This document shows positions 572 through 31,600 of a DNA stretch of 64,000 nucleotides, piece after piece. Numbering within the stretch: position 1 is the first letter of the stretch; each line of letters starts with the position of its first letter. The stretch comes from a virus. Below the pieces are notes generated by a model, which saw only the letters and a list, made by a program, of their open reading frames with translations, was not told where the DNA came from and did no database searches. Made by a program: the position numbers and the translations under genes. The stretch covers positions 64,001 to 128,000 of the IMG/VR virus record IMGVR_UViG_3300032180_000001. The stretch is one strand, 5' to 3'.

Positions 572-964
572 GTGGCCAACAATTTTCCATCCCAGCCATC
601 CGGCTTGGCGCTCGCCTCACTGAACTACGTCGTCAAGTTCGCCCCGCTGAGCGGACTTCCGCCGGTCAGCCCGTTCGCGTTCACAGGGGTGGCAACCGCC
701 CTGGTGACGCAGTTCGCGGCCGGGCAATGGGGGATAAACTTCGACTTCACGGTGCCGGGCCAGACGGGCTCGTTCGATCAGGATGCCGTTGAGGCGGGAA
801 TGAAAGTATGGCTGGAACTAGTCGCACAGGCACTGGCCGCCATTCTCGGCGTTACCCAGGCGCAGGCATCAGCCGGGATTACCGTGACGCGAATCTGGAC
901 GTGGCAGGACGACAGCGCGAGCAACGTCAGCAGCATGAGCGAGAGCTGGCCTTGGACGGCTTAA
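572..964 (+). CDS. hypothetical protein (solitary plus-strand gene)
   Basis: 130-aa ORF with natural composition. It fills the gap between two minus-strand genes and has its own -10 box. Confidence 0.65.
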   Translation: MANNFPSQPSGLALASLNYVVKFAPLSGLPPVSPFAFTGVATALVTQFAAGQWGINFDFTVPGQTGSFDQDAVEAGMKVWLELVAQALAAILGVTQAQASAGITVTRIWTWQDDSASNVSSMSESWPWTA

Positions 965-1644
965 CCCACGACCCTGCTCACGATGATCAGCACAGTAAGA
1001 AAGAAAGTAAAGACAAGAACACTCCACATGAGCTGCCGCTGGACCAGCGATACTTTGTCCGAACAAATGCTACTGGCGAGCGGCGGGTTATCTGGAGTGA
1101 CGAAACTGAGCATCCGCTCCCGATCAACGCTTGCCCCCGTTCTGGCAAAGTCATTTCGCGCATGCCGCCAGCCGTGGTAGCTTTCCTCGCCACCGTCCAC
1201 ATCACCCAGCGGGCCGAGGTAGAACGGAGACCGGTAGTCGCTATCGTCGTCGCTAATCGTTTCCCTAATGACGAAGGGCTCGTCGAGTCGCGTGATATCC
1301 TGTTCCTCAGCTGCCTCGACGGAATTTTCCGCAGGATCTACCCGAGCCCGGTGCACACCAGAAAGGATGCCGTTCTTATGACAGGCTCGGCACCATCGCT
1401 CCGTCCTGAGGGCTATCGGATCCGATACCTTCCCGCAAACCTCGCACTGCCACAGGTACTCACTCATCGCCGTCTCCTCCTGCGCTGAATGTACGCCTCC
1501 ATCAGGATCGGCCCTAACTCGGTGCATGCCCGTGACGATGCCGTCCTCATGGCAGTTCCGGCACCATCGCGTTGTTGCCTCAGCCTGCGTCCAGCATTTG
1601 ATTCCGCAAACCTCGCACTGCCACATCTTCCAGTCTCTGCTCAT
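961..1644 (-). CDS. protein with two tandem Zn-finger (WQCEVCG...WCRxCH) domains and a C-terminal TM helix
   Basis: Duplicated CxxC...CxxC units; ATGA overlap with the upstream gene; hydrophobic C-terminus. Confidence 0.75.
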   Translation of the reverse strand: MSRDWKMWQCEVCGIKCWTQAEATTRWCRNCHEDGIVTGMHRVRADPDGGVHSAQEETAMSEYLWQCEVCGKVSDPIALRTERWCRACHKNGILSGVHRARVDPAENSVEAAEEQDITRLDEPFVIRETISDDDSDYRSPFYLGPLGDVDGGEESYHGWRHARNDFARTGASVDRERMLSFVTPDNPPLASSICSDKVSLVQRQLMWSVLVFTFFLTVLIIVSRVVG

Positions 1645-1683
1645 CGTCTCCTCCTGCGCTGAATGTACGCCTCCATCAGGATC
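1433..1683. repeat. ~174-bp-period direct duplication with an exact 39-bp copy (1471-1509 and 1645-1683)
   Basis: cgtctcctcctgcgctgaatgtacgcctccatcaggatc occurs twice; ccgcaaacctcgcactgccaca also occurs twice. Confidence 0.9.
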
Positions 1684-1775
1684 AGCAGGACGAGGATCAG
1701 GCAGCTGACTCCGATGAGGATCCTCACGACCGGGCTGTACGGGAGGTCACCCAGCGGAAACGGCGGGCCGGTCAT
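1641..1775 (-). CDS. small membrane protein (44 aa)
   Basis: MTGPPFPLGD...ILIGVSCLILVLLILMEAYIQRRRRR; ATGA overlaps at both ends. Confidence 0.65.
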   Translation of the reverse strand: MTGPPFPLGDLPYSPVVRILIGVSCLILVLLILMEAYIQRRRRR

Positions 1776-1960
1776 GATGGCTGCCACGGCACGATGATCA
1801 ACTGGTAGCGGCCGATCGGGATGATCCGCTGCATGTAAGCGAAATGCGTGTAGTGGACGGACAGCTTCAGGCAGGGACAGAGAACGTTAAATGTTATGTC
1901 TGACGTCGTCGCCACGTCCCCGCACCGCGGGCACTGCCAGCGGATCACGATGGCTGCCAT
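1772..1960 (-). CDS. small zinc-ribbon protein, array member 5
   Basis: WQCPRCG...CPC...YQLIIVPWQPS; start may be GTG 1948 overlapping the upstream stop. Confidence 0.75.
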   Translation of the reverse strand: MAAIVIRWQCPRCGDVATTSDITFNVLCPCLKLSVHYTHFAYMQRIIPIGRYQLIIVPWQPS

Positions 1961-2136
1961 AGCACAATGACAATGCGGTAGGGAGCGAGCACTTCACGCA
2001 TGGTCGGGGTGGCCAGCAAATACGGGTCGCAGGCAAGACAGAAGTCAGGGATCGCAGGATAACTCGTCTTAATCCGGTGCCCGCAGACTGTGCACTCCCA
2101 GTCCCAGAGCTGGAAATCGCTCATGATGGCTGCCAC
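1945..2136 (-). CDS. small zinc-ribbon protein, array member 4
   Basis: WECTVCG...CLAC...YRIVIVLWQPS. Confidence 0.75.
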   Translation of the reverse strand: MAAIMSDFQLWDWECTVCGHRIKTSYPAIPDFCLACDPYLLATPTMREVLAPYRIVIVLWQPS

Positions 2137-2309
2137 ACTACGATGACAATGCGGTAGGGAGCAAGCACTTCACGCAGGGTCGGGGTGCGCAGCCAGTACG
2201 GGTCGCAGGCAAAGCAAAATCTATAAGCCATAGGTCCCGTCGTGAGCCGGTAGCCGCAGTCTGTGCACTCCCAGTTCCGGGCAAAGAAATCGCTCACGAT
2301 GGCCGCCAC
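2121..2309 (-). CDS. small zinc-ribbon protein, array member 3 (close paralog of member 4)
   Basis: WECTDCG...CFAC...YRIVIVVWQPS; start adjusted from the ORF-track 2363 by analogy with its paralogs. Confidence 0.75.
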   Translation of the reverse strand: MAAIVSDFFARNWECTDCGYRLTTGPMAYRFCFACDPYWLRTPTLREVLAPYRIVIVVWQPS

Positions 2310-2545
2310 GGTACGATTACCAAACGATACGGGTGCTCGGGTGTCAGCGGTGGCGTTCCCCACGGAATCTTCTTCATGAACGTAGTCTGCGTGAACGTTT
2401 CATAAGGATCAAACGTCTCCCAGGGCACGGGTATCTTCTGCAAGGAAGAGCAGCCGCAGACCGCTTGGCAGTAATAACCCGGAGTAACGAACTGACTTCC
2501 GCATCTCGGGCATTCCCACAGAATATCGCTCACGATGGCTGCCAC
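2294..2545 (-). CDS. small zinc-ribbon protein, array member 2
   Basis: WECPRCG...CGC...YRLVIVPWRPS. Confidence 0.75.
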   Translation of the reverse strand: MAAIVSDILWECPRCGSQFVTPGYYCQAVCGCSSLQKIPVPWETFDPYETFTQTTFMKKIPWGTPPLTPEHPYRLVIVPWRPS

Positions 2546-2694
2546 GGCACGACTACCAGGCGAACATTTACAAGACGCATGACTGTGAACGGAAATTCAG
2601 GGCCGAGGCAGCCGCAGACCCAGATGAGATTGAACTCAGAATTATCCGAGCCAGTTGCTTCACTCCCGCATTTCGGGCATTTCCAGATATTCAC
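2530..2694 (-). CDS. small zinc-ribbon protein, array member 1
   Basis: GTG 2694 preceded by GGGGAG; WKCPKCG...CGC...VRLVVVPWQPS. Confidence 0.75.
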   Translation of the reverse strand: MNIWKCPKCGSEATGSDNSEFNLIWVCGCLGPEFPFTVMRLVNVRLVVVPWQPS

Positions 2695-2698
2695 CGCG

Positions 2699-2959
2699 TT
2701 ACTCCCCGACCGGCCGTCCGCCTCGCCCGGAGCTATCACAGAGCCCCATGATCAGATCGTGCATGAAAATCAGCACCCGGCTGCCGTCATCGCGGACAAT
2801 GATCGCCGCCGCGTACGGGCCGTTGCCCTTGCGTCCCGGGTGCGGACCCTCCCAGATAAACCAGCGGTGGCGGCTGACTAGGTCGTAGTCTTCGTCGTCT
2901 ACTTTCGCAGTGCGAGTGTCGAGCGTACCGCGGGGGCCGTAAAGCGGGATTTCTTTCAC
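2699..2959 (-). pseudogene. truncated HNH-AP2 endonuclease (N-terminal part only)
   Basis: MKEIPLYG...VDDEDY...GPYA...MHDLIMG matches the N-termini of 2964-3488 and 4794-5375 but ends before the HNH motif. Confidence 0.7.
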
Positions 2960-2963
2960 TGTT

Positions 2964-3488
2964 TTAATTCCCTTCGCCGAGCGCTGATTGTTCGTTAGGG
3001 CCAGCGAAGTTCAGTCGGGCAAACTCTCCCCATGCCTTTCTCGCAGCAGTATCGTAAGCACAAGCAGCATCTTCTTCAACAGTAAAGCTTCCAATATAAT
3101 AAGTCTTGCCGTTTATTCTTATTGTTGCGATCCATCTGTATTTGCTTCGATAAACACCCTTAAATTTAGACGTTCCAGATCGAGAATATCCATTCGCCTT
3201 ATTCTGAGTATCTGTAGCGATACGAAGATTACTGCGCTGATTATTAAGGCCATTTCCATCACGGTGATCGATGTTTGTAGCACCTAGAATGAGGCAGTGC
3301 ATCCGAATTGTAGTTCCAGAGCCGTCCGCGCGCTTTATGGAAGAAACTGCATAAGGACCATGGAGGCGTCCAGGACGTTTTTCTTCAAGGATATGCCACT
3401 TGTATTGACTAACTAGCTGATAATCTTCATCATCGACGAGAGCAACGCGACCTGCTGCTTTTTTGCCGTTAAGTATTATTTCTTTCAT
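2964..3488 (-). CDS. HNH endonuclease with AP2 DNA-binding domain
   Basis: IDHRDGNGLNNQRSNLR HNH motif plus SKFKGV...WIATI...YIGSF...AACAYD...GEFARLNF AP2 motif; visibly AT-richer than its flanks. Confidence 0.9.
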   Translation of the reverse strand: MKEIILNGKKAAGRVALVDDEDYQLVSQYKWHILEEKRPGRLHGPYAVSSIKRADGSGTTIRMHCLILGATNIDHRDGNGLNNQRSNLRIATDTQNKANGYSRSGTSKFKGVYRSKYRWIATIRINGKTYYIGSFTVEEDAACAYDTAARKAWGEFARLNFAGPNEQSALGEGN

Positions 3489-3826
3489 TATATTTTCCTG
3501 ATCTCCCAGAATCCGATCTTCTTCTCGTAGCGTACATACATTTCCGGCTGCTCTTCCTTGAACCTCTTGCTGTCAAATCTGTACGGTGTCATCCAGGCCA
3601 GCTTCAGCTTCGGCAGACCCGGTGTCCCGGTGATGCTGGCGCGAGTCGTTCCCTCCGGGCATGCCGCAGTAGTCTCCGCCTTGATCGCATCCTTGATCGC
3701 CTCGAACCGGCTCGCTGCTTCTTCGGCGGCGGCCTTCGCGCTCTCATACGAGGCCAGTAGCTCCTCGAGACGGCTCCCCGGCTGCGCGGAAACCTGAAAC
3801 GGCGGCTCCTTCGGCTGCTCGGTCAC
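3488..3826 (-). CDS. hypothetical phage protein (coiled coil; C-terminus resembles YqaJ-type tails)
   Basis: Coiled-coil N-terminus and RFDSKRFKEEQPEMY motif; coupled to its neighbours. Confidence 0.6.
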   Translation of the reverse strand: MTEQPKEPPFQVSAQPGSRLEELLASYESAKAAAEEAASRFEAIKDAIKAETTAACPEGTTRASITGTPGLPKLKLAWMTPYRFDSKRFKEEQPEMYVRYEKKIGFWEIRKI

Positions 3827-4209: not shown

Positions 4210-4327
4210 AGCGGTGCTCCCTCGTGTCTGGCGGTACGATCGTTGTGAGTATAGAACCTATGTTGCGTCAGGGGGAAGCCTGACTTAGACTCTTAGAGAC
4301 TCAACGGAGCCTGTACTAAGGGGGCAC

Positions 4328-4708
4328 ATGTTCATCACAGGTGTTGATGATGACATAGTTTCATGCCGAGCCTACGGCCACCGCTGGCCCTCGAAGAACC
4401 TGCGATCCGGTCGGAAGCTGCCCAGGGGCTTCGTTCCGCGGGCGGTTCATAATGGCAGCGTGGAGATCACCGAGATATGCCCTGACTGCGGGAAGAAGCG
4501 GGTCACCGTGACGCTGCCTGGCGGAGCCTTCAACAAGGAGGTCATCCGGAACTACGTCGACCCGCCGAACTGGCCGGTGTTCAAGGGCGATGATCGCAAG
4601 ACGCCACGGGACTTCCAGGCAGAGATGTATCGTAGGGTGAACGAAGAGCTGATGGCCGAAGCGCGCAGGAACCCGCTACCCCACGACGGGGATGCTTCGG
4701 GTGACTGA
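4328..4708 (+). CDS. hypothetical protein with CRxxGHxW and CxxC motifs
   Basis: SD-like AAGGGGG upstream; first gene of the rightward cluster. Confidence 0.7.
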   Translation: MFITGVDDDIVSCRAYGHRWPSKNLRSGRKLPRGFVPRAVHNGSVEITEICPDCGKKRVTVTLPGGAFNKEVIRNYVDPPNWPVFKGDDRKTPRDFQAEMYRRVNEELMAEARRNPLPHDGDASGD

Positions 4709-4793
4709 CCTTCAAGGTAGCCTGAGGAGCAGAGAATGCCCTGGCACCGCGCCAACGGCCCAGGGCTGGCCACTGCCCCCGGAGAACAGCGAC

Positions 4794-5375
4794 ATGAAAA
4801 CTATACCGCTGTATGGTAAGAAGGCTGCTGGGCGTGTCGCACTAGTCGACGACGAAGACTACGAGCTAGCTATGAGGTACAGGTGGCACGTTTTTGAAAG
4901 AAAACAACCATCGGGTAACACAAATGGCCCTTATGCCTCCACCAACGTCAGAAAGCCTGACGGCTCCAAGCGTATTATCCGCATGCATCAACTGCTCATG
5001 GGGTTTCCCGCATGCGACATAGACCACAGTAATCACAATAGTCTAGACAACCAGCGCAGTACTAATCTGCGCTTGGCCACTCGCAGCCAAAACAACGCAA
5101 ATCAGATACCTCGATCAGGAAAAACTTCTGTATACAAGGGTGTTTCCTGGCATAAAGGCGCTAAAAAATGGACAGCTAATATCACTGTATACAGTAAACA
5201 GTGCTACCTCGGACTCTTCCTTAGCGAAGAAAATGCCGCCAGAGCGTACGATAAGGCTGCACTTGAGACATGGGGCGATCGAGCGCTGCTTAACTTTCGC
5301 CGGGTGAACGATGAGCTGATGGCCGAGGCGCGCAGGAACCCGCTGCCTAGCGACGAGCCTGAGGAGCCCGAATGA
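4794..5375 (+). CDS. HNH endonuclease with AP2 domain, C-terminally fused to a duplicated end of the upstream gene
   Basis: Start chosen by homology to 2964-3488 (MKTIPLYGKKAAGRVALVDDEDY) and GGAG SD; IDHSNHNSLDNQRSTNLR and AP2 motifs present. Confidence 0.9.
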   Translation: MKTIPLYGKKAAGRVALVDDEDYELAMRYRWHVFERKQPSGNTNGPYASTNVRKPDGSKRIIRMHQLLMGFPACDIDHSNHNSLDNQRSTNLRLATRSQNNANQIPRSGKTSVYKGVSWHKGAKKWTANITVYSKQCYLGLFLSEENAARAYDKAALETWGDRALLNFRRVNDELMAEARRNPLPSDEPEEPE

Positions 5376-11989: not shown

Positions 11990-12328
11990 ATGGCTCGGTA
12001 CGGACGACGGCTGACGTCCGCCGAGGCACGCGAGCTGCGGATCATCCGGGTAACCACCCGCGCGAAAGTGGCTGATCTCGCCAAGCTGTATAACGTATCG
12101 CAAACCACAGTGCTGTCTGTCATCCGCGGGCTGAGCTACCTCGACGCGGGCGGCCCGGCCGATGACGTTATCCTGCACAAGGACGTCCGACGGGAACACG
12201 GTACCGCTGCGTGCTACGCGACCGGATGTCGACTGCCGGCGTGCGTGCAGGCCAACAAGGACCGGAGCCGCGAGTACCGGCAGCGGAAAAAGAAGGAACG
12301 GCAGCAAGAGGGGACAGACCGGTCGTGA
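11990..12328 (+). CDS. HTH DNA-binding protein with C-terminal HGT..Y..GCRxxxC motif
   Basis: VADLAKLYNVSQTTVLSVIRG HTH; HGTAACYATGCRLPAC. Confidence 0.7.
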   Translation: MARYGRRLTSAEARELRIIRVTTRAKVADLAKLYNVSQTTVLSVIRGLSYLDAGGPADDVILHKDVRREHGTAACYATGCRLPACVQANKDRSREYRQRKKKERQQEGTDRS

Positions 12329-12525
12329 GTGAGGGTGCCGTAACGTATCCGAAAGAACCCTATGAAGCCGCGCGCCCGTGCCCATACTGCCAGGGTGCCG
12401 GGAAAGAACTGGTCATCGTGCAGGTGAAGGTAATCGTGTTCAGTCCGACGGTGATTGGCTACGCGGGAAGATGCGGCCACATCTGGGATCTCGCCGCTTA
12501 CCGAATTCAAAAGCAGACAGCATGA
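12325..12525 (+). CDS. small Zn-ribbon protein
   Basis: CPYC...RCGHIW; GTGA overlap. Confidence 0.55.
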   Translation: MSEGAVTYPKEPYEAARPCPYCQGAGKELVIVQVKVIVFSPTVIGYAGRCGHIWDLAAYRIQKQTA

Positions 12526-12556
12526 ACCAGGACGAGCACCTACCTGAAAGATCAAA

Positions 12557-12730
12557 ATGCCTAAGCTAAACGAGCTAACCCTCAAGCAGGTCAGTGAAGC
12601 AGCCTCTGACGTCCGGCGGAACGTTCGCGGGGCAGTTGACGCGGCCAAATCCGGAAACCGGACGGAAGCATACGCGGCAGCTGAGCGCGCCCAGCACGCA
12701 GCCTTTGAACTGAAGCAGTTGTTTGCATGA
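12557..12730 (+). CDS. small helical protein flanked by 21-bp direct repeats
   Basis: MPKLNELTLKQVSEAASDVRRNVRGAV...ELKQLFA; manual translation. Confidence 0.55.
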   Translation: MPKLNELTLKQVSEAASDVRRNVRGAVDAAKSGNRTEAYAAAERAQHAAFELKQLFA

Positions 12731-12936
12731 ACCAGGACGAGCACCCGCCTGGCTCGATGGCTGTCTGCCGGCACTGCGGAAAGCTGATCACCCGGCTGGT
12801 TGCTGGCTGGACCGACCTCGACGGCTTCTTCGCCTGCGTCAAGTCACCGACCTACTCCGTTCGCGACGCGGTGCTGCACGTTCCCATGCCGGACGGGCTC
12901 ATCGGCGCAGCCTTCGCATCGATCGTGCCAGACTGA
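12727..12936 (+). CDS. small Zn-binding protein
   Basis: CRHCG...W...C...H pattern; ATGA overlap. Confidence 0.55.
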   Translation: MNQDEHPPGSMAVCRHCGKLITRLVAGWTDLDGFFACVKSPTYSVRDAVLHVPMPDGLIGAAFASIVPD

Positions 12937-12961
12937 ACGGCATCTAGTATGGTAGGGAATC

Positions 12962-13312
12962 ATGACTAATGACCCTGTGACCCAGATGGCCAGGCGCCCG
13001 GGAGCCGGAGTAGCCATTGACCGGGACAAGCTGCTTCGCATGCGCCAGACCATGCTGCTGTCTCGTTCCCAGCTGGCCGCGAAGATGAGCGATGACGGGG
13101 AAACCCCGGAGTTTACGATCACCGCAGACGCGATCGCCAAGATAGAGAACGGCTGGCGAAAGCCGAAAACCGCTACCTTTGGCCGGCTCTGTGATGCTCT
13201 CGACTGTAAGCCGGAAGATCTCCTGCCCGATATAGGCTCCACCCGGCCGAAACCATGTCCGCATTGCCAGGGGATCTTCGGCCATGAAAGCGGCTGCCCT
13301 GATGCAACCTGA
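12962..13312 (+). CDS. XRE-family HTH transcriptional regulator
   Basis: LLRMRQ..LLSRSQLAAK...IAKIENGWRKPKTATFGRLCDALDCKPEDL; C-terminal CPHC...HxxxC. Confidence 0.85.
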   Translation: MTNDPVTQMARRPGAGVAIDRDKLLRMRQTMLLSRSQLAAKMSDDGETPEFTITADAIAKIENGWRKPKTATFGRLCDALDCKPEDLLPDIGSTRPKPCPHCQGIFGHESGCPDAT

Positions 13313-13589
13313 CGCCACGCTTCTTCCCTATGATGACGAGTACGATAACGAGTACAACGACGAATCTGAGTACATACGCCAGCTTGCCCAGTACTATCCG
13401 CGCCTGGATAAATACCGAACAGAGGTAACCGAGCTTTCCGACGATCGGGGGTTTTACTGGCATCTCTATTCCCGCGATAACGGACGGCGCGTCAACGGAG
13501 GCCTCGCCGGAACCTGGTCGGGTGCCCTGCATGCCGCCCGCCTAGCAGCAGCATACGGACACGGGAGCGGTGCTCATGAACGCTACTAG
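13302..13589 (+). CDS. hypothetical protein
   Basis: ORF in the cluster. Confidence 0.55.
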   Translation: MQPDATLLPYDDEYDNEYNDESEYIRQLAQYYPRLDKYRTEVTELSDDRGFYWHLYSRDNGRRVNGGLAGTWSGALHAARLAAAYGHGSGAHERY

Positions 13590-14100
13590 ATATCACGTCA
13601 CTATATTTAACACTATGAAACCAGTCAAAGTTCTACGGATGCCAAGTGGTGAGATAGCGCTGATAGATCCGGAAAACTGGGCTAAGGTTCAGGAACGTGG
13701 ATCTTGGCACATTAATAAAACTCCAAGTGGAAAAACATATGTGCGCAGTAGCTCCAATAAAGGACGCCCTAAAGTACTGCTGCATGTATTCCTTACTGGT
13801 TTTCAGGAGACAGATCATATAAATGGTAATGCGCTGGATAACCGAATTGACAATCTAAGATCCGCAACCCGTAAGCAAAACATGGCTAACCAAAGAATGA
13901 AACGTACAAATAGATCAGGCTATAAAGGTGTAAGCTGGAATAGTGATACGGGTAAATGGCGAGCAGATATATCAAGAGGACCCGCTCACTACCTGGGACA
14001 GTTCACTGATCCTGTAGAAGCTGCCAAGGCTTATGACATAGCAGCGCTTAACCTCTACGGAGAGTTTGCTCTAACTAACGAAAGGATGGGCTTGCTATGA
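13570..14100 (+). CDS. HNH endonuclease with AP2 domain (probable start ATG 13615)
   Basis: ETDHINGNALDNRIDNLR plus SGYKGVSW...YLGQF...AAKAYD...GEFA; AT-rich. Confidence 0.9.
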   Translation: MLMNATRYHVTIFNTMKPVKVLRMPSGEIALIDPENWAKVQERGSWHINKTPSGKTYVRSSSNKGRPKVLLHVFLTGFQETDHINGNALDNRIDNLRSATRKQNMANQRMKRTNRSGYKGVSWNSDTGKWRADISRGPAHYLGQFTDPVEAAKAYDIAALNLYGEFALTNERMGLL

Positions 14101-14346
14101 GGTACCACGTTACCCCATGGGGTTTTTTACTGGCTTGTCATCCTGATAGCTATTGTCGGACCGGAGGTTTACTGGGTTTTCGTCAATGGTGCCAACACTA
14201 TTTCAGATAACACCTGGGCGGTCGAGCGCCTGGACTCGCATCCGTTCGACATGTCCGACTGGACCTGGCTGCACTGGACTATCGCGCTCCTGCTCTGGTC
14301 TCTCTTCGGATGGCTCTCGCTGCACCTCCCCTTCCATATCCTTTAG
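14097..14346 (+). pseudogene. small membrane protein frameshifted at T6 (14123-14128)
   Basis: Removing one T gives MRYHVTPWGFYWLVILIAIVGPEVYW...NTISDNTW...HWTIALLLWSLFGWLSLHLPFHIL; ATGA overlap with the HNH stop. Confidence 0.65.
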
Positions 14347-14416: not shown

Positions 14417-15118
14417 ATGCGGAAGATAAAGAAATTCTCACTCACGATCCTCGTCTTTTCTGGTCTGCTCACTCTACTGGCTTTTACAGGTAACCAGGCT
14501 CCTGCTGTATCAGCGCTCCCCGCCCCACCGCACGGCTACCATCTGACCTATAGCCATGACTTTGCAACCCAGGGCTGGGGCGACTGGTCAATTACCTCGC
14601 AGAACGGCGCAACAGAAGCTGTTACCAGTCAGGGACTCGGTTCAACCCTGACAGCCACGATGCAGAATGTTGGCGCAAGTTCAGCCTTTGCGTTCAAGCC
14701 AGGCTCGTTTATCCAGGGATACGTGTATCTGGACCCGATTAACGGGGTAATTGCTAACTGGCCCGCGTTCTGGTCAGTCGGCCCGAACTGGCCGTATGGC
14801 GGGGAGATCGATTTCGTGGAAGGGCTGGGCGGATCCGCCTGCTGGCACACGCATTACCCAAACGACCCTAACCCGGGTGGTTGCGCCCCGGCCGGGCAGT
14901 TCACCGGCTGGCACGTCTTCTCCGCGCTCTGGACGCACGGGAAGGTTACCTTCTGGTACGACAGCCAGCAAGTAGGGACCGAACCGCTGACGACAGATAA
15001 AAATCTTCAGCTTGAGTTCGGTTCCACGTCAAACGATTTCGGCTGCTCGATCTGTCTCGGACCTCCGAAGTACCCGTCAACGGTTTATCTTCAGTGGGTG
15101 AAGGTCTGGCATAAGTAG
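14417..15118 (+). CDS. secreted glycoside hydrolase family 16
   Basis: Signal peptide; WPAFW...GEIDFVEG catalytic ExDxxE motif; WHVFSALW...VTFWYD. Confidence 0.85.
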
Positions 15119-15490
15119 TCAGGGGGCAGGCGTTTTCGCGGGCAGTTTCGCCAGTGGCGTGAGGTTCTGCCGGAGCAGCAAGCCGAGAACGATGCTAACG
15201 GCCGCCGTAGTCGATCCGATCGCTGATGGAGAGAAATGCAAGTGGAAGGCGCCGAGCGCGATCAGCACGGACGTGAGACCGCCCTTGATCACCGGAAGGG
15301 ACACTTCGCGAACGAGCACGGCGGTGAGAATCGAGAGCACAGCAGTAGTAATAACGGTGATCGCTCCGGTCTGGTCGGCGGTGAGATGCCAGCCCCAGGA
15401 CACGGCTAGCGCTACCGCAGTGTTAACGCCGAACAGGATGACGGCCGGCTCCGTCCGGATGAGGTTCAGCAGCTGCTTGAGGTAATTCAC
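15119..15490 (-). CDS. holin-like multi-TM protein
   Basis: About 4 hydrophobic segments; RTEPAV...LTADQTGAI pattern of actinophage holins; last gene of the late operon. Confidence 0.65.
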   Translation of the reverse strand: MNYLKQLLNLIRTEPAVILFGVNTAVALAVSWGWHLTADQTGAITVITTAVLSILTAVLVREVSLPVIKGGLTSVLIALGAFHLHFSPSAIGSTTAAVSIVLGLLLRQNLTPLAKLPAKTPAP

Positions 15491-15492
15491 GG

Positions 15493-16386
15493 TCAGGCCT
15501 TTCGGTTACGGGTCAGCAGGGTTACCAGGGCGAGAAGGCACCCGGATGGAGAAGGCGCCGAAGACGGCGGAGTAGAAGACGAACTCGGTGCGAGCGGCGG
15601 TGACGATGCGGGGGCGGGAAAGGGATTCTGCCCGGTAATCGCATTAAATTCGGAGCCGAGCGTCACCAGATCGACACCATCCGGATCCTTCCCGCTCGTT
15701 TTGTTTACCCAGTTAAGGCTGACCGGCGCCCAGGCTTCGCTGCTGAAGGTGGACCAGAAATTCCAGTCCATGTGCCAGAGTTTCCCCCAGGTGAGCAGCA
15801 GGAAACCAGCCGCGTCGTACCCGCAAATCAAAACGCAGTGCCCGCCGGCCAGCGAAGTGTCAGTGGTAACGATCCACGGCTGACCGTTATCGAATTGCGT
15901 GATGGCACTGTTCGGCAGGTTCAGCGCGACGGACAGGCAGCCGAACTCCCAGATCGCGGTCTTCATCTTCTCGATGGCGGTAATGTCCACCTCGCCGTAA
16001 GCCGCGATCATCACGCCCGCCATGCCGGGGTTTTTCAGGTAGCTGAGGCCGTCCGGGATCTGCGCTCCGTTATCGGTCGGGTTGCGGCCTGGCGGCCCTG
16101 CGTTCGGGTCGAAGCCGCCAACCACCTCGTACGCTGTCAGCACCGCATCGTCGGGGACGGTAACCTCGGAGCCCTGACCGAACCAGGTCTGCTGCTGTAT
16201 GATATTCGCATCACTCGCGAGTACACAGCACCCGTACGTATCATTCAGGTGCATTCCTATCACAGGGATACCTGAGCCCCAGTTAACGCTCGGCGGGGCC
16301 ACGTTCTCACGTAGGGAGGCGGTCAGCCGGACTCGGGGGCGTTCCGATGGTGTCGGGACTAGTCCGCCCCGGAATACGGTTGTCAT
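15493..16386 (-). CDS. papain-like cysteine peptidase (possible lysin)
   Basis: GCCVLAS nucleophile region, GHCVLICGYD His motif and LTWG; Pro/Ser linker with a hydrophobic-basic tail. Confidence 0.7.
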   Translation of the reverse strand: MTTVFRGGLVPTPSERPRVRLTASLRENVAPPSVNWGSGIPVIGMHLNDTYGCCVLASDANIIQQQTWFGQGSEVTVPDDAVLTAYEVVGGFDPNAGPPGRNPTDNGAQIPDGLSYLKNPGMAGVMIAAYGEVDITAIEKMKTAIWEFGCLSVALNLPNSAITQFDNGQPWIVTTDTSLAGGHCVLICGYDAAGFLLLTWGKLWHMDWNFWSTFSSEAWAPVSLNWVNKTSGKDPDGVDLVTLGSEFNAITGQNPFPAPASSPPLAPSSSSTPPSSAPSPSGCLLALVTLLTRNRKA

Positions 16387-16395
16387 AGGGCCATC

Positions 16396-16554
16396 CTATC
16401 GTGCTTCCGGTTTCTTCTCTTCCGGCCGGTACTCCCAGGTTCGCCAGCCAGTCCGTCGGAAGCCCTCGCGCTTCAGCCGCCGAACCTGCCACGGCCAGGA
16501 GATCGCAATCCAGATCCGCAGGAAGAAACGGCTGCGCCGGGGAACACCCTCCAT
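16396..16554 (-). CDS. small basic hypothetical protein
   Basis: MEGVPRRSRFFLRIWIAISWPWQVRRLKREG...; C-terminal part of the long ORF-track call. Confidence 0.4.
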   Translation of the reverse strand: MEGVPRRSRFFLRIWIAISWPWQVRRLKREGFRRTGWRTWEYRPEEKKPEAR

Positions 16555-16722
16555 GCCTAACGGACCTTTCCGGGTAATCTGGGAGCCACCGCACGATACG
16601 GTCTGGCTGGCCACGCTGCTCCCCCAAGTGCTGGAGATGGCGATAGTCTGCGGACTCGTTGTGTCGAAGTTTACCCCGGTAGCTTGGTTGTCGAACAAAG
16701 TATTACATGTTATGCTAAAACC

Positions 16723-17433
16723 ATGAGCGGACCAGCAGGCGTTACCTACCCGCCCGGCTATCGTTTCGGCCGGGGCACCGTCATTGAAGAAGTCAGGTTT
16801 CCCACAACAGACCCCCGGTACCGGAGCGGCGTTCGCGGCATAAGACTGAGGTGTGACTGCGGAAACGTTTACGAAGTTCGGCTCGCAGCGCTGACTAAAA
16901 AGTATAAGCCAACCCAATCGTGCGGATGCCTGATGCGGGAAGTAGCACAAACAGCCTCCATAACGCATGGTCTTACTTATCACCCTCTTTACGAAGAATG
17001 GAGTAACATCAAACAGCGATGTTATAACCCGGATAATACCTCGTTCAGGTGGTATGGAGGGAGAATCACCCTGTGCAAGCGCTGGCACGATCCTGAGCTT
17101 TTCATAAAGGATATATTGGCCGAAATCGGTCCGAGACCTAAGGGGCGCACCCTGTCGGGAAAGATGCCAGCTTGGTGGATCGACCGTATCGATAATGATG
17201 GTGACTATAAACAAGGTAACGTCCGCTGGGTCACGCCAACTAAATCGACTCATAATCAACGTAGACACTGGGATACTAAACTTGATCCCGAGAAGATAAT
17301 TGATATTAAGCGACGGCTCATTGCAGGTGAGAGCGGGATTTCGATAGCCAGATCTTACGGTGTATCGAAAGGGCATATTAGCCGAATTAAAACCGGTAAA
17401 GCATGGTCTCATATCAAGGACCTTTCCGGGTGA
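16723..17433 (+). CDS. HNH endonuclease with C-terminal HTH (antisense insertion)
   Basis: HPLY..W..IKQRCYNP...YGGRI...IDRIDNDGDY..GNVRWVT; HTH IARSYGVSKGHISRIKTG; TGnTATGCT 6 nt before ATG 16723. Confidence 0.85.
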   Translation: MSGPAGVTYPPGYRFGRGTVIEEVRFPTTDPRYRSGVRGIRLRCDCGNVYEVRLAALTKKYKPTQSCGCLMREVAQTASITHGLTYHPLYEEWSNIKQRCYNPDNTSFRWYGGRITLCKRWHDPELFIKDILAEIGPRPKGRTLSGKMPAWWIDRIDNDGDYKQGNVRWVTPTKSTHNQRRHWDTKLDPEKIIDIKRRLIAGESGISIARSYGVSKGHISRIKTGKAWSHIKDLSG

Positions 17434-25628: not shown

Positions 25629-28600
25629 TTACCACCCGCCATAATTTCCGCGGCTTGCCGCCCGATGTGCCGATCCGGTGAGCGCTTGGCTGAAGGCCGG
25701 TCCCTGCCGGTTGACCGCCGCCGTGTTCGCGTCCATCGACGCCCGCAGGGCACGCATCTCGTTGAGACTTTCCCGCTCGTAGGCAGTCATTCCGTCAGGA
25801 GAAACCGGCCGCGACGATCTGCTGTCACCGTGCCCTCGTGGCGAGATCCAGCCGCTGCGGCTCGGGGTGAGCATTTCCGGAGCGCCGGTCTGGTTGTTGA
25901 TCAGGTTCAGGCCTGGCTGGACGAGACCGCCCTGGTCGAAACGACGGCCGTGCTCGTCTATCCCGTGAATGCCGGTTGCCTTGCCTGCCAGCTTCAGCGC
26001 CTTCGTCTGTCCCTTGTCCATGAGGAACTGCTGCACGGCAAGCTGAGCGGCATCGTAGTTAGCTTGCATGCCCGCGTACAGCCCGCCATTCTGAGTCGCG
26101 GACTTGCCCACCCAGGAGGCGGGGTTGAAGACGTTCGCCACCATCAGGTCGCCGAGTTCCGGCTGCATCGCCCAGCCGAGCGGCGTAACCGAGCCCGGTC
26201 CGGAGATCAGGTATTTTAGCATCGGGTTGGTGGTCAGCGCCCGGACGAGCTGCAGCACGGGCGTGTTCGCCGTCGGCAGCTGCAACCCAGCACCGCCGGG
26301 CAGGGCACCGAGCTTCTGCTCCAGCCCCCGCAGGACCCCTTGGTCACCGGTCACCCTGTTTCCGGCATTGAGGTAGGCCCGGAGCGCCCGCTGGTAATGC
26401 CAGTTGTCGGTTTTCCACTTTTTCGAACCCTTTCTGTCATGCCCCAGGATCCGCTGGTCTGTTTCTGCCACACCGTAAGCGATGTTCGCTGCCTTCTCCG
26501 CGGCGGCGATCTTCTTCTCTTCTGAGGAGATCTGCCGGACCAGAGCGGCCCGCTCCTGCTCGGGAATGGCGGCGAGAACCGCCTCACGGTGCTTAATCGC
26601 CAGCTGGTCTTTCCCGATCGCGAATTCGGCACCCTTGTAAAGCTTGCTGTCCCGGAAGTACCCGGCGTCGTCGTGGTGCTTGCTGTCGTTGGCCATCCCG
26701 GCGGCGGCTTTCGCTGCGGCTGCCTGATCGCGAGTCAGTTTCGCCAGCAGTCCCCGCAGGTACCTGTCGTTGCCCGGGTTCTGCTGGTACTGCGCCACCT
26801 GTTTCGCCGCAGCATTGTAAGCAGCCTGGTCGCCCTTCTCAACCTGCCCGGCATGGAACAGCGCGGCCTGCGCCTTCTGGTAATTTTTCAGCTCGAGACG
26901 GTAAGCCGGGCTGGTCTTGCTGCCCTTGAACCGAGATAGGGTGCCGCCGAGCGACTCCACATTAGCCAGCGCCGCCGCAACGGCGTCTTTTGCATGCGTC
27001 AGGGCCAGGTCGTCGCGCTGGACGGTCTGCTGCGCCTTCTGCAACGGAGTTAGCGCCATCCACGCCTTGTATGCCTTGATGTTCGCCTGCTCGGTCGCGG
27101 CGGCAAACAGCGCGTTCTGCGCCTTGACGCTGTCAGCGGAGTACGCGCCGGTCAGCCCGTGCGCCAAGTCGTAATTCATCTTATTGCCGTAGCGAGTCTC
27201 GGCGCGCTGGTCAGCTGCCAGCGCGGCTTCCATCCCGGCTAGGGTCTGCTTCGGGGTTTTCGGCTTCGGTTTCTGGCCTGGTTTTCTGTTCCGCTGATGC
27301 CCCCCGTGGCCGCCGCTCATGCCGGGGATGCCCAGCCGCTCGCCAACCGTGAGAAGGTTCGGGTTCCCGCCAATCACCGAGCGGTTGGCGTCCCAGATCT
27401 CCGCCCAGTCACCCGCGTTACCGAGGAACCGCGCCGCGATGCCAGAGAGCGTGTCACCCGCCTTCACGTTATAGACTAGGCCACCCTTACTCTTCATGAA
27501 ACTAGCCGCGAGTGATAGTCCGGTAGAGTGCACGTCATTAATGCCATACCGTTCGACACCCTTACCCCAAAGATTAGCTGCCTCTAGTACTGACGTTGTT
27601 GATTTCATCTGACTGATAACTCCCTGATCGCCAGATGAATTGACGAATTCTATAATGGCGGGAAGCTGCGTTTTCATTCCGCCCTTAAAGGCAGCATCAG
27701 AGATAGTACCCGCCGGCGTCCAGCCAATGAGCCCTCGTCCGCCAGTGCCAGCAGCAAACGGGTTCCAGTTCGACTCTCCCCAAATTGATGCCGTAGCGCC
27801 AGCAGCAGCGAACTTTTGTCCGCCGAACAAATTTGTCAGCAGATAGTTATACAGCTCCCTGCCGTTAGCCATTTCCGAGCCAGTAGCACCGCCCGCCGGG
27901 CCGGTCCCAACTCCGCCTGCCAGCGCCGACGCTCCGGCCTTCGCGATGTGCGCAACCGCCTCTTGCGCTAGCTTGGGCGGCATGCCGCTCAGAATCCCGG
28001 CCAGGTTGCGCGTGCCGGTACCTTTCGCCGGATTACCGGTACCTTTCAGCAGGTCAACGACGGCCTTCGCGTTTCCGGCACTCGTTTGCAGCAGCAGATC
28101 GGTACCGACAGCGGAGAGCTTGCCCAGCGCGGAGGGATCCGGCCCGGTCGGAACGGTACTCACGCCGCCGCTGGCCGCGACGGACCCGCCCATGTTCGTT
28201 GGAGTCTGCTTCGTGCCCAGGCTCTTTAGAAATGACCAGAACTCTGCGCCCCCTGCGGTCAGTCCGCCGCCCTGGGTCAGCGGATGGGTGCCGGAAGGAT
28301 CAGCAAAGCCAGTTTCTATCGAGCTGCCATTCATCACGCCGATAACCTGACCGGCAGTGAGGCTTCCGCCTACTTTGAGACCGGGTACCAGCGGAACACC
28401 TTCAGCAAGATAAACAACACTGCCAGCCTTAGGACCGTCATTCAGACGGTAGGTGAAGAAGGTGCCCGGACTTGGTCCAGCGGGCGGACCCCAGCCGCCT
28501 TCTGATGTGCGGAGAATAGTTCCGTTACCAATAGCGAGCACCGGACCTGCACCGGTGAAGTCGACTCCTTGGTCAATCCTTGAACTTCCGGCACTTGAGG

Positions 28601-31600
28601 GAATCGGGTTAACATAGCCACCACCGACCACACCGCCCTTGGCGAACCCCGGAACGCCCATCGCCTTCAGCGCGCTTGCGTGCTTCCGGACGGTCATCTT
28701 GTCAACGACGGCTTCGCCGGGCTCGAGAAGCGCGGGTACGGAGTCGCCGCCGCCGAAGCCGTCGAGTCGGCCACCGCGGGCCATCGTAGCAATCTTCGGG
28801 ATGCTGCCCGAGACGCTTGCCCACGAGCCAATCGAGTTGATGCCAGTCACCAGGTTGTTCAGCCCGCCGATCGACGTGTTAACGGGAGGCTTGATGACAC
28901 TGGTCAGGCGCCCCCAGGCCCCGCCGACGTTGCTGACTCCGGTGGCGAATGCCTGCGGCACCTGGCTCGTGTAGATGGTGGTCATGGTGCTCAGGAACGG
29001 GCTCTTCTGCCAGGCGAGGTGACCGGTCATGATGCCGCGCACCGGCGTGTCGTACTGCGTCGAAGACGTTTTCGCTGATGCGTTGTAGACGCCCGGTATC
29101 GCCTGGGTGTACAGGTTGCTGATACCGGTGCCGAAGGTGCCCTGCTGCCAGTTCAGGTGCTGAGCCATCGTTGTGCGGACCGGCTTGTCATACCTGGACG
29201 AGGCAGCCTGCGCGCTGTTGTCGTAGACCGCTGGCAGCGCCTTGGTGTAGAGCTTGTCCATAGCGGTGCCGAACGTATTCTGCTGCCAGCCGAGATGACC
29301 GGTCAGCGTCTTCTGCACTGGCTTGGCAAACTTATCGCGAGTGCTTGCGGCTGACTTGTCGAGGCTGGCGGGGAGATCCTTGGTGAACACCCTGCTCAGT
29401 CCGTTACTGAACTGTCCCCTGACAAAACCTAGCGCGTCATTCAGGTTCTTTTTCACGGACTTGCCGAGCTTGCCCGTGCCCCCGTCACCGAGTTCGGCAT
29501 GCTTAGCGCTACCACCACCGGTGCTTGTCAGCGTAATTGCATGCGCGGGATGACCCGCTCCGCCGCCACCAACCGATCCGCCGGTCGCATACTTGTTGAG
29601 CCCGTCCAGGAATCCCGGTCCGTACATCTTCTTCAGGTGCGCGGCAGCGGTCTTGGTGAGCACGAACTCGCCGGGGGTGAGCATGGCCGGAACGGTATCA
29701 CCGTGTCCGGTGCCGCCGATGTGACCGCCCTTAGCGTGACCCGGCAGGCCGTACATCAACGCATTGAGTCCCGCCGCGCCAAGCTTTCCGAGGTGCATGG
29801 TATCCGGAACGAGGGTGATCGGGATCCTGAGGGGAGGTGGCTGCTGCACCGTTGGCTTGATGGGCGGCGGCTGCTGCACCTGCGGCTTGATCAGCGTTGA
29901 GTTGATAATGGCGATTTGGTTACTGTTCAACCCGAGATGATGTAGTAGGGCATCAACTTGTCCGGGATCACTGCCAGGCTTGATCTTCAGCTTATTAACG
30001 TCCGCTATCTGCGTGGAATTCAGCCCGATAAGTCCCAGCATTTTGTTCACGTCACGCGGATCACTGCCGGGGTGAATCTTCAGCGCGTTTACTTCGTTGA
30101 TCTTATGCTGGTTCAACTTGAGCCCTTGCAGAAGACCGGTAAGTCCCGCCCGCGCAATAGCCGAGCTGAGCTTGACAGATGGCGGAACCGCATGAATCTT
30201 TCCGGTAAGATCCTTTACACTGGCTGTGGCTTGATTAATCGGGACGTGCGCGTCTGTCAGGATTTTGATGAGCTTTCGCTGATTAGTGCCAATCGCGGTC
30301 TTGTTGTTACTAGCAACAGCCTGCGTCAGGTTATCAATGACAGCTTTCGCCTTTGGCGTCGTGGCGACCATGTCCTTGGTGTACTCAACCGCCTGTGCTT
30401 GAGAATGCTGCTGGTCCTGGATGACACCTGTGTACTTAGAAACCGACGCGGTCGCCTGCGCCTGAGTAGAAAGCCCGTCCTTCACGAGTGAATTGGCCAG
30501 CGCTGTCCGGTCAGCAACTAGCTTCTGTGCGGAAGCGTTGTTGTTCAGGTCCCGCGTGTAGGTGACAAGCGCCCTGCCGATGTCCGGTGGCGTGCCCGTC
30601 GTGCCCGGCTTGGTGATGTCGGCGTACCCCGCAGCAAGATTGACCGGACTCCTGCCCCCGCCCGGTGGCGTGCTGTACATGTCCCCCTTCGGACCTCGTG
30701 CGGGGACATAACCCGCCGGTGATGTGAATCCAGGATGAGGAGGCTGATCAACCGCAGGACGGCCCCGGCTGTCAGTCGGCGGAACATAACCGCCTCGGGT
30801 CACGTGCCCCGGCTGATTAGGCTTCGGTGGCGCTGGCTTGGGCGTCGTCGCAGTAGTGATTGTTGCTGCAGCCGTTGTCGCCGCTCCCGTCGTTATCCCC
30901 GCCGCAGTTGTCGCCGCCCCCGTTGTCGTGCCCGCTGCAGTCGTTGCTGCTCCCGTAAGTGCCGCTCCTGCCTTATTCGCCGCCGTATTTACCGCAGATA
31001 CTCCGGCATTGTTCAGCCTGTTCTGAGCATTTTGGGCAGCAGCCTGAGCGTTCGCGGCAGCAAGAAGCTGCGCCTGGGTAGCCTTGTGCTGGCCGTACAC
31101 CTTGTTCAGGTTCGTCATCTGAGCGACAGCCCCGGCCTGAGCATTATTCAGGGTCTTGTGTGCGGCGGCGAGCTGCGCGGAGGTAGCCGTACCGCTGGCC
31201 AGAAGTTTGTTCAGGTTCAGCTGGGCCGCAGCCGCCGACGCGTTGGCTCCCGTCAGGCCGCTCTGTGCTGCTTTTTTCTGCGCTGTTGTTGCCGGTCCCT
31301 GTGCCATCAAAGCGGTCAGCTTGTTCGTCGCCGCAGTTAGCTTGTTCTGCGCGTAAATCCCCGCGAGGATGGAGGCCCCGGTGACCAGTGGAGTGCCGCT
31401 CGCGCCCGTAGCCGCAGGAGAGACTGCCTTCGCCGCCTTCGCAGGAGAGACGCCCGCTTTTTTCTGCGCTGCCGCGATTGAAGCAGGTGTAGCACTGTAC
31501 GTCCCCGCCGGAACTGTAACTCCCGGCGCACCGAACTGATCGAAAACCGAACCGCCAGCTGCGAACTTATTCATTTTATGCAGGACGTCCGGCCCAAATT

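Follow-up and report, generated by a model that had tools for sequence, protein, structure and literature searches.

The DNA considered here, referred to as the window, is a stretch of 64,000 nucleotides (nt) corresponding to bases 64,001-128,000 of a 184,980-bp linear viral record (IMGVR_UViG_3300032180_000001), which is 99%-complete. Its minus strand carries an array of five small genes, designated u1 to u5, for putative zinc-ribbon proteins with variable N-terminal parts (heads) and a nearly constant C-terminal peptide (the tail, or tag). The shared tail appears to be undescribed and, judging from the motif searches presented below, extends well beyond the coordinates of the array; we consider it the interesting part of the locus. 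The host of the phage is most likely an actinobacterium, because the large terminase shares 28-35% identity with the terminases of Rhodococcus, Arthrobacter and Mycobacterium phages, and an Lsr2 gene is located just downstream of the array region. Uncultured viral contigs of up to 190 kb encode closer homologues of this terminase, at 51-74% identity.

Anatomy of the zinc-ribbon array

The genes of the array, their junctions and the two genes that follow are given below by window position and with protein lengths in amino acids (aa); the bounds of u1-u5 were taken from the RTG of each RTGA stop/start overlap.

2702..2707, minus strand: Shine-Dalgarno site of u1, GGGGAG, 7 nt ahead of the GTG, the sole one in the array
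2530..2694, minus strand: u1, 54-aa Cys4 zinc-ribbon protein ending RLVVVPWQPS, GTG start, first in the chain
2530..2544, minus strand: junction 1 (u1 stop / u2 start), TGGCAGCCATCGTGA
2294..2533, minus strand: u2, 79-aa zinc-ribbon protein with a longer middle, ending RLVIVPWRPS, GTGA overlap with u1
2294..2308, minus strand: junction 2, TGGCGGCCATCGTGA
2121..2297, minus strand: u3, 58 aa, ending RIVIVVWQPS, recent paralogue of u4
2121..2135, minus strand: junction 3, TGGCAGCCATCATGA
1945..2124, minus strand: u4, 59 aa, ending RIVIVLWQPS, ATGA overlap with u3
1945..1959, minus strand: junction 4, TGGCAGCCATCGTGA
1772..1948, minus strand: u5, 58 aa, ending QLIIVPWQPS, GTGA overlap with u4
1772..1786, minus strand: junction 5 (u5 stop / membrane mini-ORF start), TGGCAGCCATCATGA
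1641..1775, minus strand: membrane mini-ORF (open reading frame), 44 aa, hydrophobic, single membrane span, ATGA start in the fifth junction
961..1644, minus strand: gene 7, 227 aa, two WxCxxCG...CxxC zinc ribbons, C-terminal membrane anchor, no tag

In the alignment of u1-u5, a Trp, the CxxCG motif, a third Cys and the V-x-W-x-PS ending are invariant, which bears out the original prediction of five genes that all combine WxCxxCG, a second Cys pair and the terminus (R/Q)(L/I)(V/I)(I/V)VxW(Q/R)PS. Three of the Cys positions (C6, C9 and C26/27) do not vary, and the fourth Cys occurs in a CxC (u1, u2 and u5) or CxxC (u3 and u4) pair; the two Cys knuckles are spaced for one zinc, as in a Cys4 zinc ribbon. 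At the level of sequence, u1-u5 are shown to be real paralogous genes for small Cys4 zinc-ribbon proteins. Counted from the RTGA starts, the genes measure 54-79 aa; the figures of 80-83 aa that had also been given derive from upstream in-frame starts. The third and fourth members had been described as near-duplicates; they are indeed alike (86% DNA identity over 99 nt), and with 69% protein identity they are paralogues rather than near-identical copies. By this comparison of their sequences, the array is shown to have arisen by tandem duplication, with u3/u4 as the latest copy.

Heads and tails seem to evolve differently. Between u3 and u4, for which the counts are small, the nonsynonymous (pN) and synonymous (pS) differences are 0.08 and 0.28, respectively, in the last 28 codons, compared with 0.23 and 0.22 in the first 19 codons and 0.52 and 0.59 in the next 10. 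The tails of the array thus appear to be under purifying selection and the heads not, in agreement with the predicted design of variable zinc-ribbon heads on a constant tail. For u2 and its orthologue on a metagenome contig (L006, described below), which share 45% identity over 73 residues, pN is 0.34 against a pS of 0.62, the behaviour expected of coding ORFs.

The junction likewise recurs at all five gene ends, as predicted. The pattern TGGCRGCCATCRTGA has five exact matches, all on the minus strand, versus 0.03 expected in shuffles, and none elsewhere in the 184,980-bp genome; the junctions are spaced by 173, 176, 173 and 236 bp.

That no described family matches the array also proved correct in searches of Pfam, PHROG and, by profile, 1.84 billion proteins. 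The units resemble small Cys4 zinc ribbons and rubredoxin-like knuckles (Pfam Zn_ribbon, DUF7129) in having a Trp-preceded CxxC followed some 15-20 residues later by a second CxC or CxxC; unlike members of those families, they fall below every Pfam or PHROG threshold, no curated zinc-ribbon family being matched above it (best Pfam E 0.01-0.08, far short of the cut-offs; PHROG E >= 0.01). The profile search recovered the window's own proteins, two small single-domain relatives (P0030 and P0028) and, for the rest, generic multi-zinc-ribbon repeat proteins. A word-indexed protein search with the five units returned the window's own proteins only, and back-translated searches for unit relatives in viral and metagenome contigs gave pattern matches of which none was confirmed. 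In five related viral records neither the unit profile nor the neighbouring 128-aa gene found a match.

The AlphaFold2 model of u5 (predicted local distance difference test, pLDDT, 72) contains two N-terminal hairpins. Its best Foldseek matches in the PDB are MCM, ribosomal and rubredoxin zinc ribbons, all non-significant (E > 1), and the ESM Atlas holds no look-alike of u2 at 0.9 or above. An array of precursors of ribosomally synthesized and post-translationally modified peptides was considered and set aside: the Cys pattern is that of a zinc ribbon, and the tail also occurs on 100-aa proteins.

The membrane mini-ORF is the sixth member of the chain; it lacks the tag and overlaps gene 7, which has strong Shine-Dalgarno sites both at its own start and at an internal Met60. 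A duplication seems to have fused two zinc-ribbon units into gene 7, whose second half could be made separately as well. A 53-nt repeat with 89% identity (window 1460-1512 and 1634-1686), which holds a strong AGGAGG site, is read in two frames: one copy encodes the end of the mini-ORF (...EAYIQRRRRR*), and the other lies within gene 7 (...DPDGGVHSAQEET) ahead of Met60.

A tail module shared across the phage genome

The profile of the five units also matched the C-termini of other ORFs in the genome. For a motif scan, the tag was defined as [RW]-L-[VA]-[VI]-V-P-W-x-P within 21 residues of the stop, with a fuller module of P-x-[YR]-[RW]-L-V-V-V-P-W-x-P. The genome contains 22 such near-C-terminal matches, compared to 1.2 in shuffled sequence (maximum 4). 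About 21 small ORFs, all on the minus strand, carry the tag, and the 22nd match is a doubtful one on the plus strand. The tagged ORFs are arranged in contiguous, overlapping or near-overlapping runs, four of them tightly coupled clusters, given here in genome coordinates:

4,257-4,394, minus strand: lone tagged gene
12,162-14,117, minus strand: tag cluster of seven consecutive genes
15,721-17,108, minus strand: tag cluster of three genes
29,982-32,251, minus strand: tag cluster of five genes
65.8-66.7 kb, minus strand: tag cluster formed by the zinc-ribbon array, u1-u5

A plus-strand ORF ending ...NVLVLWRPTGDAGGAG* at window 11,797 (genome 75,797) may hold a weak copy of the tail, and this could be chance.

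The bodies of the tagged proteins are unlike one another and include several Cys-rich patterns, a 'V-T-P-E-E-A' repeat family (the 'TPEEA' family), paralogous 100-aa proteins and a 46-aa helix. The same short peptide thus ends otherwise unrelated proteins, more often than chance would allow. The constant C-terminus had been taken as a property of the array; this view has to be given up, as about 21 otherwise unlike small proteins of the phage carry the same tail, and by sequence the array's ending is shown to be one instance of a genome-wide module. A Pro/Gly turn, and often another hydrophobic stretch, precedes the tail, an arrangement that suggests a hairpin. The second Pro is present in 19 of the 21 tags of this phage. 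Where the protein extends beyond the tail (by 3-21 residues), the extension often encodes the Shine-Dalgarno site of the next gene, and in the 30-32 kb cluster a GGAGG arises from the Trp-Arg codons themselves (TGG AGG), seven bases before the ATGA overlap.

Pfam and PHROGs gave nothing significant for ten other tagged proteins; the AlphaFold2 prediction for the 'TPEEA' family (pLDDT 45) was unusable; the only resemblance in a PDB profile search with that family, to a subtilisin propeptide, was not significant (E 1.1); and back-translated searches for its relatives confirmed none. A full-text literature search for the motif VVPW led only to unrelated papers.

Relatives of the tagged proteins were found on a small number of contigs. 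On L006, a metagenome contig of 910 bp, the u2 orthologue (L6A) comes first; it is followed by P0030, then by another tagged unit, whose N-terminus is longer, and then by a gene-7 orthologue. P0030, of 63 aa, shares the head and terminates in RLVVVPWTAS. The three L006 junctions read VPWTAAL*, VPWTAS* (with an ATGA overlap) and VPWKKASPDE*, and all three tags are without the second Pro. The second small relative, P0028 (71 aa), occurs on another actinophage-like contig and has a u2-like head (E 1e-13) with no tail; because the head of u2 matches this tagless protein, head and tail are separable. On L068, a 117-kb contig, P0170 is a tagged homologue of the 'TPEEA' family, and the orthologue of another tagged Cys-rich protein keeps the tail (FVVVPWLPS*) at 45% identity (E 5e-16). 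L068 also has a gene-7 orthologue, which no zinc-ribbon array precedes. The tag is missing from nine related viral records, of which three are at least 90% complete, and the strict DNA pattern has 0 matches in them versus 8 in this phage. From these comparisons the tag appears to be lineage-specific, and to differ in concert on L006.

The number and order of units vary among relatives, as had been predicted: five plus the membrane mini-gene here, at least three on L006 (only u2 being clearly orthologous) and none before the gene-7 orthologue of L068. Two assemblies of the same phage (ERZ27257219 and SRR9648402) show identical unit order.

Coupled translation and the origin of the junction

All five junctions are 4-nt RTGA stop/start overlaps. 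The predicted pairing with the anti-Shine-Dalgarno sequence amounts to -7.4 kcal/mol at u1 and -10.3 kcal/mol at gene 7, compared with -1.8 to -4.8 kcal/mol for u2-u5 and the mini-ORF, which have no Shine-Dalgarno site of their own. Overlapping genes continue on the minus strand over a wider run, from 4209 to 961, within which no promoter-like or terminator-like site stands out. Overlaps of 4 nt couple translation via termination-reinitiation and often mark the subunits of one complex (PMC6728339, PMC10666635). Since the starts of u2-u5 and the mini-ORF lie in RTGA overlaps and lack a Shine-Dalgarno site, these genes are expected to depend on termination-reinitiation. The translational coupling originally proposed is upheld: six genes are shown to hang on one ribosome-binding site through 4-nt overlaps, as a chain that the sequence predicts to be coupled. 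The array is like other ATGA/GTGA-coupled operons (PMC6728339, PMC10666635) in its 4-nt overlaps, its downstream genes without Shine-Dalgarno sites and its co-directed small genes. Unlike typical coupled operons, it places six successive genes on one ribosome-binding site, with the same protein tail before each overlap. In these terms, tandem duplication accounts for the array in an ordinary way, and what is unusual is the length of the coupling chain.

The original prediction had gone further, and regarded the junction as a dedicated, conserved and dual-coding element. This cassette model sees in the constant junction a recombination site, preserved so that units can be added, dropped or shuffled while remaining coupled, in the manner of a coding analogue of attC or of the PeSL (promoter early stem-loop) cassettes. 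We consider the model improbable. Several observations are in its favor, among them the unit content, which differs among the three comparable genomes, and the u3/u4 pair, a recent tandem copy with a unit-length period. A RecE-like fragment is encoded nearby, and PeSL cassettes provide a precedent for repeat-mediated shuffling of small phage ORFs (PMC2839356). The array is like T4-type PeSL cassettes and integron attC sites (PMC2839356) in having short repeats between small variable ORFs, the content of which varies among relatives; unlike them, it has a coding repeat, which contains neither a promoter nor a terminator nor a recombinase site and whose DNA the relative does not conserve. The RecE-like fragment is a 112-aa ORF (window 3488-3826, minus strand) that matches only the C-terminal end of RecE-like exonucleases (PHROG 434, E 6e-7).

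The DNA of the tags is slightly more alike than is predicted from the protein and the genome's codon usage, with mean pairwise identities of 0.752 versus 0.675 for the five array tags and 0.63 versus 0.605 for all 21, as the cassette model would have it. The excess is small, however, and is expected, because shared ancestry would produce it; across the tags, synonymous codons vary freely. Most junction bases are fixed because Trp has one codon, Gln/Arg are CAG/CGG in this GC-rich genome, a TCR Ser codon supplies the R of RTG, and the stop is TGA. The only free base of the junction is the Pro wobble position, and here the codon is CCA in 5/5 junctions against 15% genome-wide, a further point for the model. 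Against it, the junction is not kept on L006, where the sequences differ, and it is absent from the rest of the genome; a search of viral contigs for two junctions 150-180 nt apart gave 0 matches. Border DNA conserved beyond coding need and across relatives was thus not found. In addition, u2 and its orthologue, for which pS is saturated, indicate units that are old and not rapidly shuffled, the unit order is the same in the two assemblies of the phage, and neither an integrase nor a promoter/terminator cassette flanks the units.

The 'dual coding' reduces to the 4-nt start/stop overlap, the upstream in-frame RTG being an automatic consequence of the Pro-Trp codons. The upstream RTG start, which would give an 'MAAI' extension, was rejected as real dual coding: it has no Shine-Dalgarno site, and the corresponding L006 peptide differs (MDGSA or MDSV). 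The constant part of the junction is the protein tail, with varying synonymous codons. On sequence grounds, the junction is the tail (TGG, CRG, CCA, TCR) plus a direct stop/start overlap, copied by tandem duplication; it appears as a by-product and not as a dedicated site.

Two further features of the window may be mentioned. Three paralogous HNH/AP2-type homing-endonuclease-like genes occur within 3 kb (window 2699-2959 and 2964-3488, minus strand; 4692-5375, plus strand), and the one adjoining u1 is an 86-aa N-terminal fragment. A single ORF of 5,176 aa (window 25,629-41,159, minus strand) probably encodes a tape-measure-like giant virion protein.

Possible functions of the shared tail

The reading that we favor, at somewhat better than even, is a duplicated family of early proteins in which variable zinc-ribbon heads are set on a common handle, produced from a coupled chain, with a genome-wide tail and a by-product junction. 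The tail would form a short, Pro-Trp-capped hydrophobic strand and dock all of the tagged proteins on one putative partner or assembly, and the fast-evolving heads would supply different binding specificities. The array itself would then be a set of early proteins for host takeover or adaptor functions, duplicated, diversifying and produced in fixed proportion. The anti-defence adaptor role originally suggested is hypothetical. A common handle is suggested because the heads vary and the tail is constrained, genome-wide, lineage-specific and concertedly different on L006. In its support, and indicating constraint at the level of the protein, the tail is kept in the 45%-identity L068 orthologue, in P0170, in the u2/L6A pair and in P0030.

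In phage T4, the clamp-binding tails of gp43, gp33 and gp55, and in T7 the acidic tails of gp2.5 and gp4, are cases in which one short peptide docks several proteins on a single partner. As with these docking tails, several proteins of a phage that are otherwise unrelated end in the same short peptide. Unlike them, the present tail is hydrophobic (L-V-V-V-P-W-x-P), is carried by about 21 mostly tiny proteins, is often followed by up to 21 residues, and would dock on a partner that is putative; a beta-clamp gene, sought as a possible reader of the tail, was not found in the phage.

Several points weigh against the common handle. The tail is not strictly terminal, and the 1-21 residues that follow it make a poor fit to readers of a free C-terminus and do not conform to a free-C-terminus degron. 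Both handle and partner are putative, and u1-u5 are predicted ORFs whose coding behaviour was read from their sequence. Public gene calls on the two assemblies of the same phage list u3, u4, u5, the mini-ORF and gene 7, and skip u1 and u2. In these assemblies a 182-aa antisense ORF (window 2333-2881, plus strand), probably spurious, covers u1/u2; the uncalled stretch is equivalent to window 2262-2598. Finally, the AlphaFold2 model of u5 gives the tail no regular strand.

A purely structural tail is a serious rival, if on balance an unlikely one. The tail would form the last strand of a C-terminal beta-hairpin that serves the protein's own fold or self-association, inherited from one ancestral small gene of which the N-terminal parts diverged, and the array would be an ordinary expansion of paralogues. 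The tail could be such a structural element and not a handle because that of the 'TPEEA' family looks domain-embedded and some relatives lack the Trp: it resembles the last strand of a conserved C-terminal domain of about 35 residues (G-x-D-P-x-x-V-L-L...Y-R-L-V-x-V-P), and distant homologues either are tail-free or end YRLVAVPDP, in which VPDP replaces VPW and the strand is kept. The turn (Pro/Gly with Tyr/Arg) and the frequent second hydrophobic stretch ahead of the tail would also fit a hairpin, and the contiguous runs of tag genes are such as tandem duplication leaves. On the other hand, at least three Cys patterns, an alpha/beta repeat family and a 46-aa helix-only protein are hard to derive from one fold, and the head of u2 exists tail-free in another phage. 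The three L006 tags differ alike from those of this phage, which would fit a shared reader or gene conversion, and the unpaired tail of the u5 model speaks against a strand here as well.

A bolder proposal, which we hold tentatively and regard as rather unlikely, is that the tail is an address label, read by a single partner that handles some 21 early proteins together; partner and tail would co-evolve, with W-[QR]-P in this phage and W-T-A on L006. A ClpC-type N-domain, either that of host ClpC1 or the phage copy, would be the best candidate for such a partner, and the array would then encode a diversifying set of adaptors that bring different host targets to it. The phage copy, encoded at genome 13,939-14,766 on the minus strand, has 276 aa and a double Clp_N repeat of the ClpC type (Pfam E 3e-37). 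It shares 70-77% identity with the ClpC N-domains of actinobacteria, and its gene is located directly upstream of the seven-gene tag cluster, as part of that coupled run. ClpC N-domains that occur as separate proteins (ClpC2) serve as competing binding sites, and a phage protein has been reported to bind the ClpC N-domain in Bacillus (PMC10030653). The present phage is comparable to the ClpC2 case (PMC10030653) in that it encodes a stand-alone ClpC N-domain protein beside one tag cluster, and such domains bind hydrophobic peptides; the link between tail and Clp is here one of gene adjacency only.

A tail directed specifically at Clp is decidedly improbable. The tail would be a ligand of the ClpC-type N-domain groove (the cyclomarin-like peptide site), serving for timed degradation by host ClpC1P1P2 or for retention by the phage Clp_N protein as decoy or adaptor. 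This phage has both Clp_N and the tag and the nine related viral records have neither, but the co-occurrence concerns a single genome. On L068, the syntenic stretch contains two tagged genes and no Clp_N. Conversely, the mycobacteriophages Myrna and Phabba carry Clp_N, and the tag is not enriched in Myrna (7 matches versus 5 for the control pattern). The Clp_N gene is moreover about 50 kb from the zinc-ribbon array, and the tail is often situated away from the extreme C-terminus. In a search for phage parallels, all three of the stand-alone Clp_N proteins inspected on large contigs were chromosomal.

The Clp_N locus itself shows some unusual features. The last 60 or so codons of the gene overlap the next gene in another frame, and a 31-aa remnant that repeats the start of the gene (MYERFTDQARRVVVLAQEEA...) is found at genome about 15,590-15,680 (minus strand). 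Inserted between the remnant and the full gene is a plus-strand, Cys-rich ORF of 253 aa (14,844-15,605) with no Pfam match, for which our guess is a homing-endonuclease-type insertion with target duplication.

A signal at the level of translation is highly improbable. Here the tail or its mRNA would act as a nascent-chain or codon-specific pause near the end of the ORF, and thereby help the ribosome to reinitiate at the following gene. No tail is more than 21 codons from the stop, which the next start follows immediately, and Trp and Pro are typical of known arrest peptides. The Val codon ahead of Pro-Trp is GTG or GTA in 24/25 tags from this genome, L006 and L068, compared with 48.5% for the Val-Pro pairs of the genome (p about 4e-7), a synonymous constraint that protein function does not account for. 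Yet tail and stop are separated by anything from 1 to 21 residues, and tag clusters I and II carry ordinary Shine-Dalgarno sites in their tail extensions and need no such help. The conserved upstream hairpin and the hydrophobic strand resemble a folded protein, and there is no resemblance to a described arrest motif.

Whichever reading of the tail holds, we would not count the conserved dual-coding junction among new recombination elements. For the study of termination-reinitiation in high-GC hosts, the six-gene chain on one ribosome-binding site offers a clean natural case. Should the tail be no more than a structural strand, the array is ordinary expansion of paralogues. If it is a common handle, about 7% of the genes (on a rough estimate of 300 genes, uncounted) would be routed through one docking site, the identification of a single partner would cover some twenty orphan proteins, and the division between head and tail would mark the target-choosing residues of these tiny zinc ribbons.

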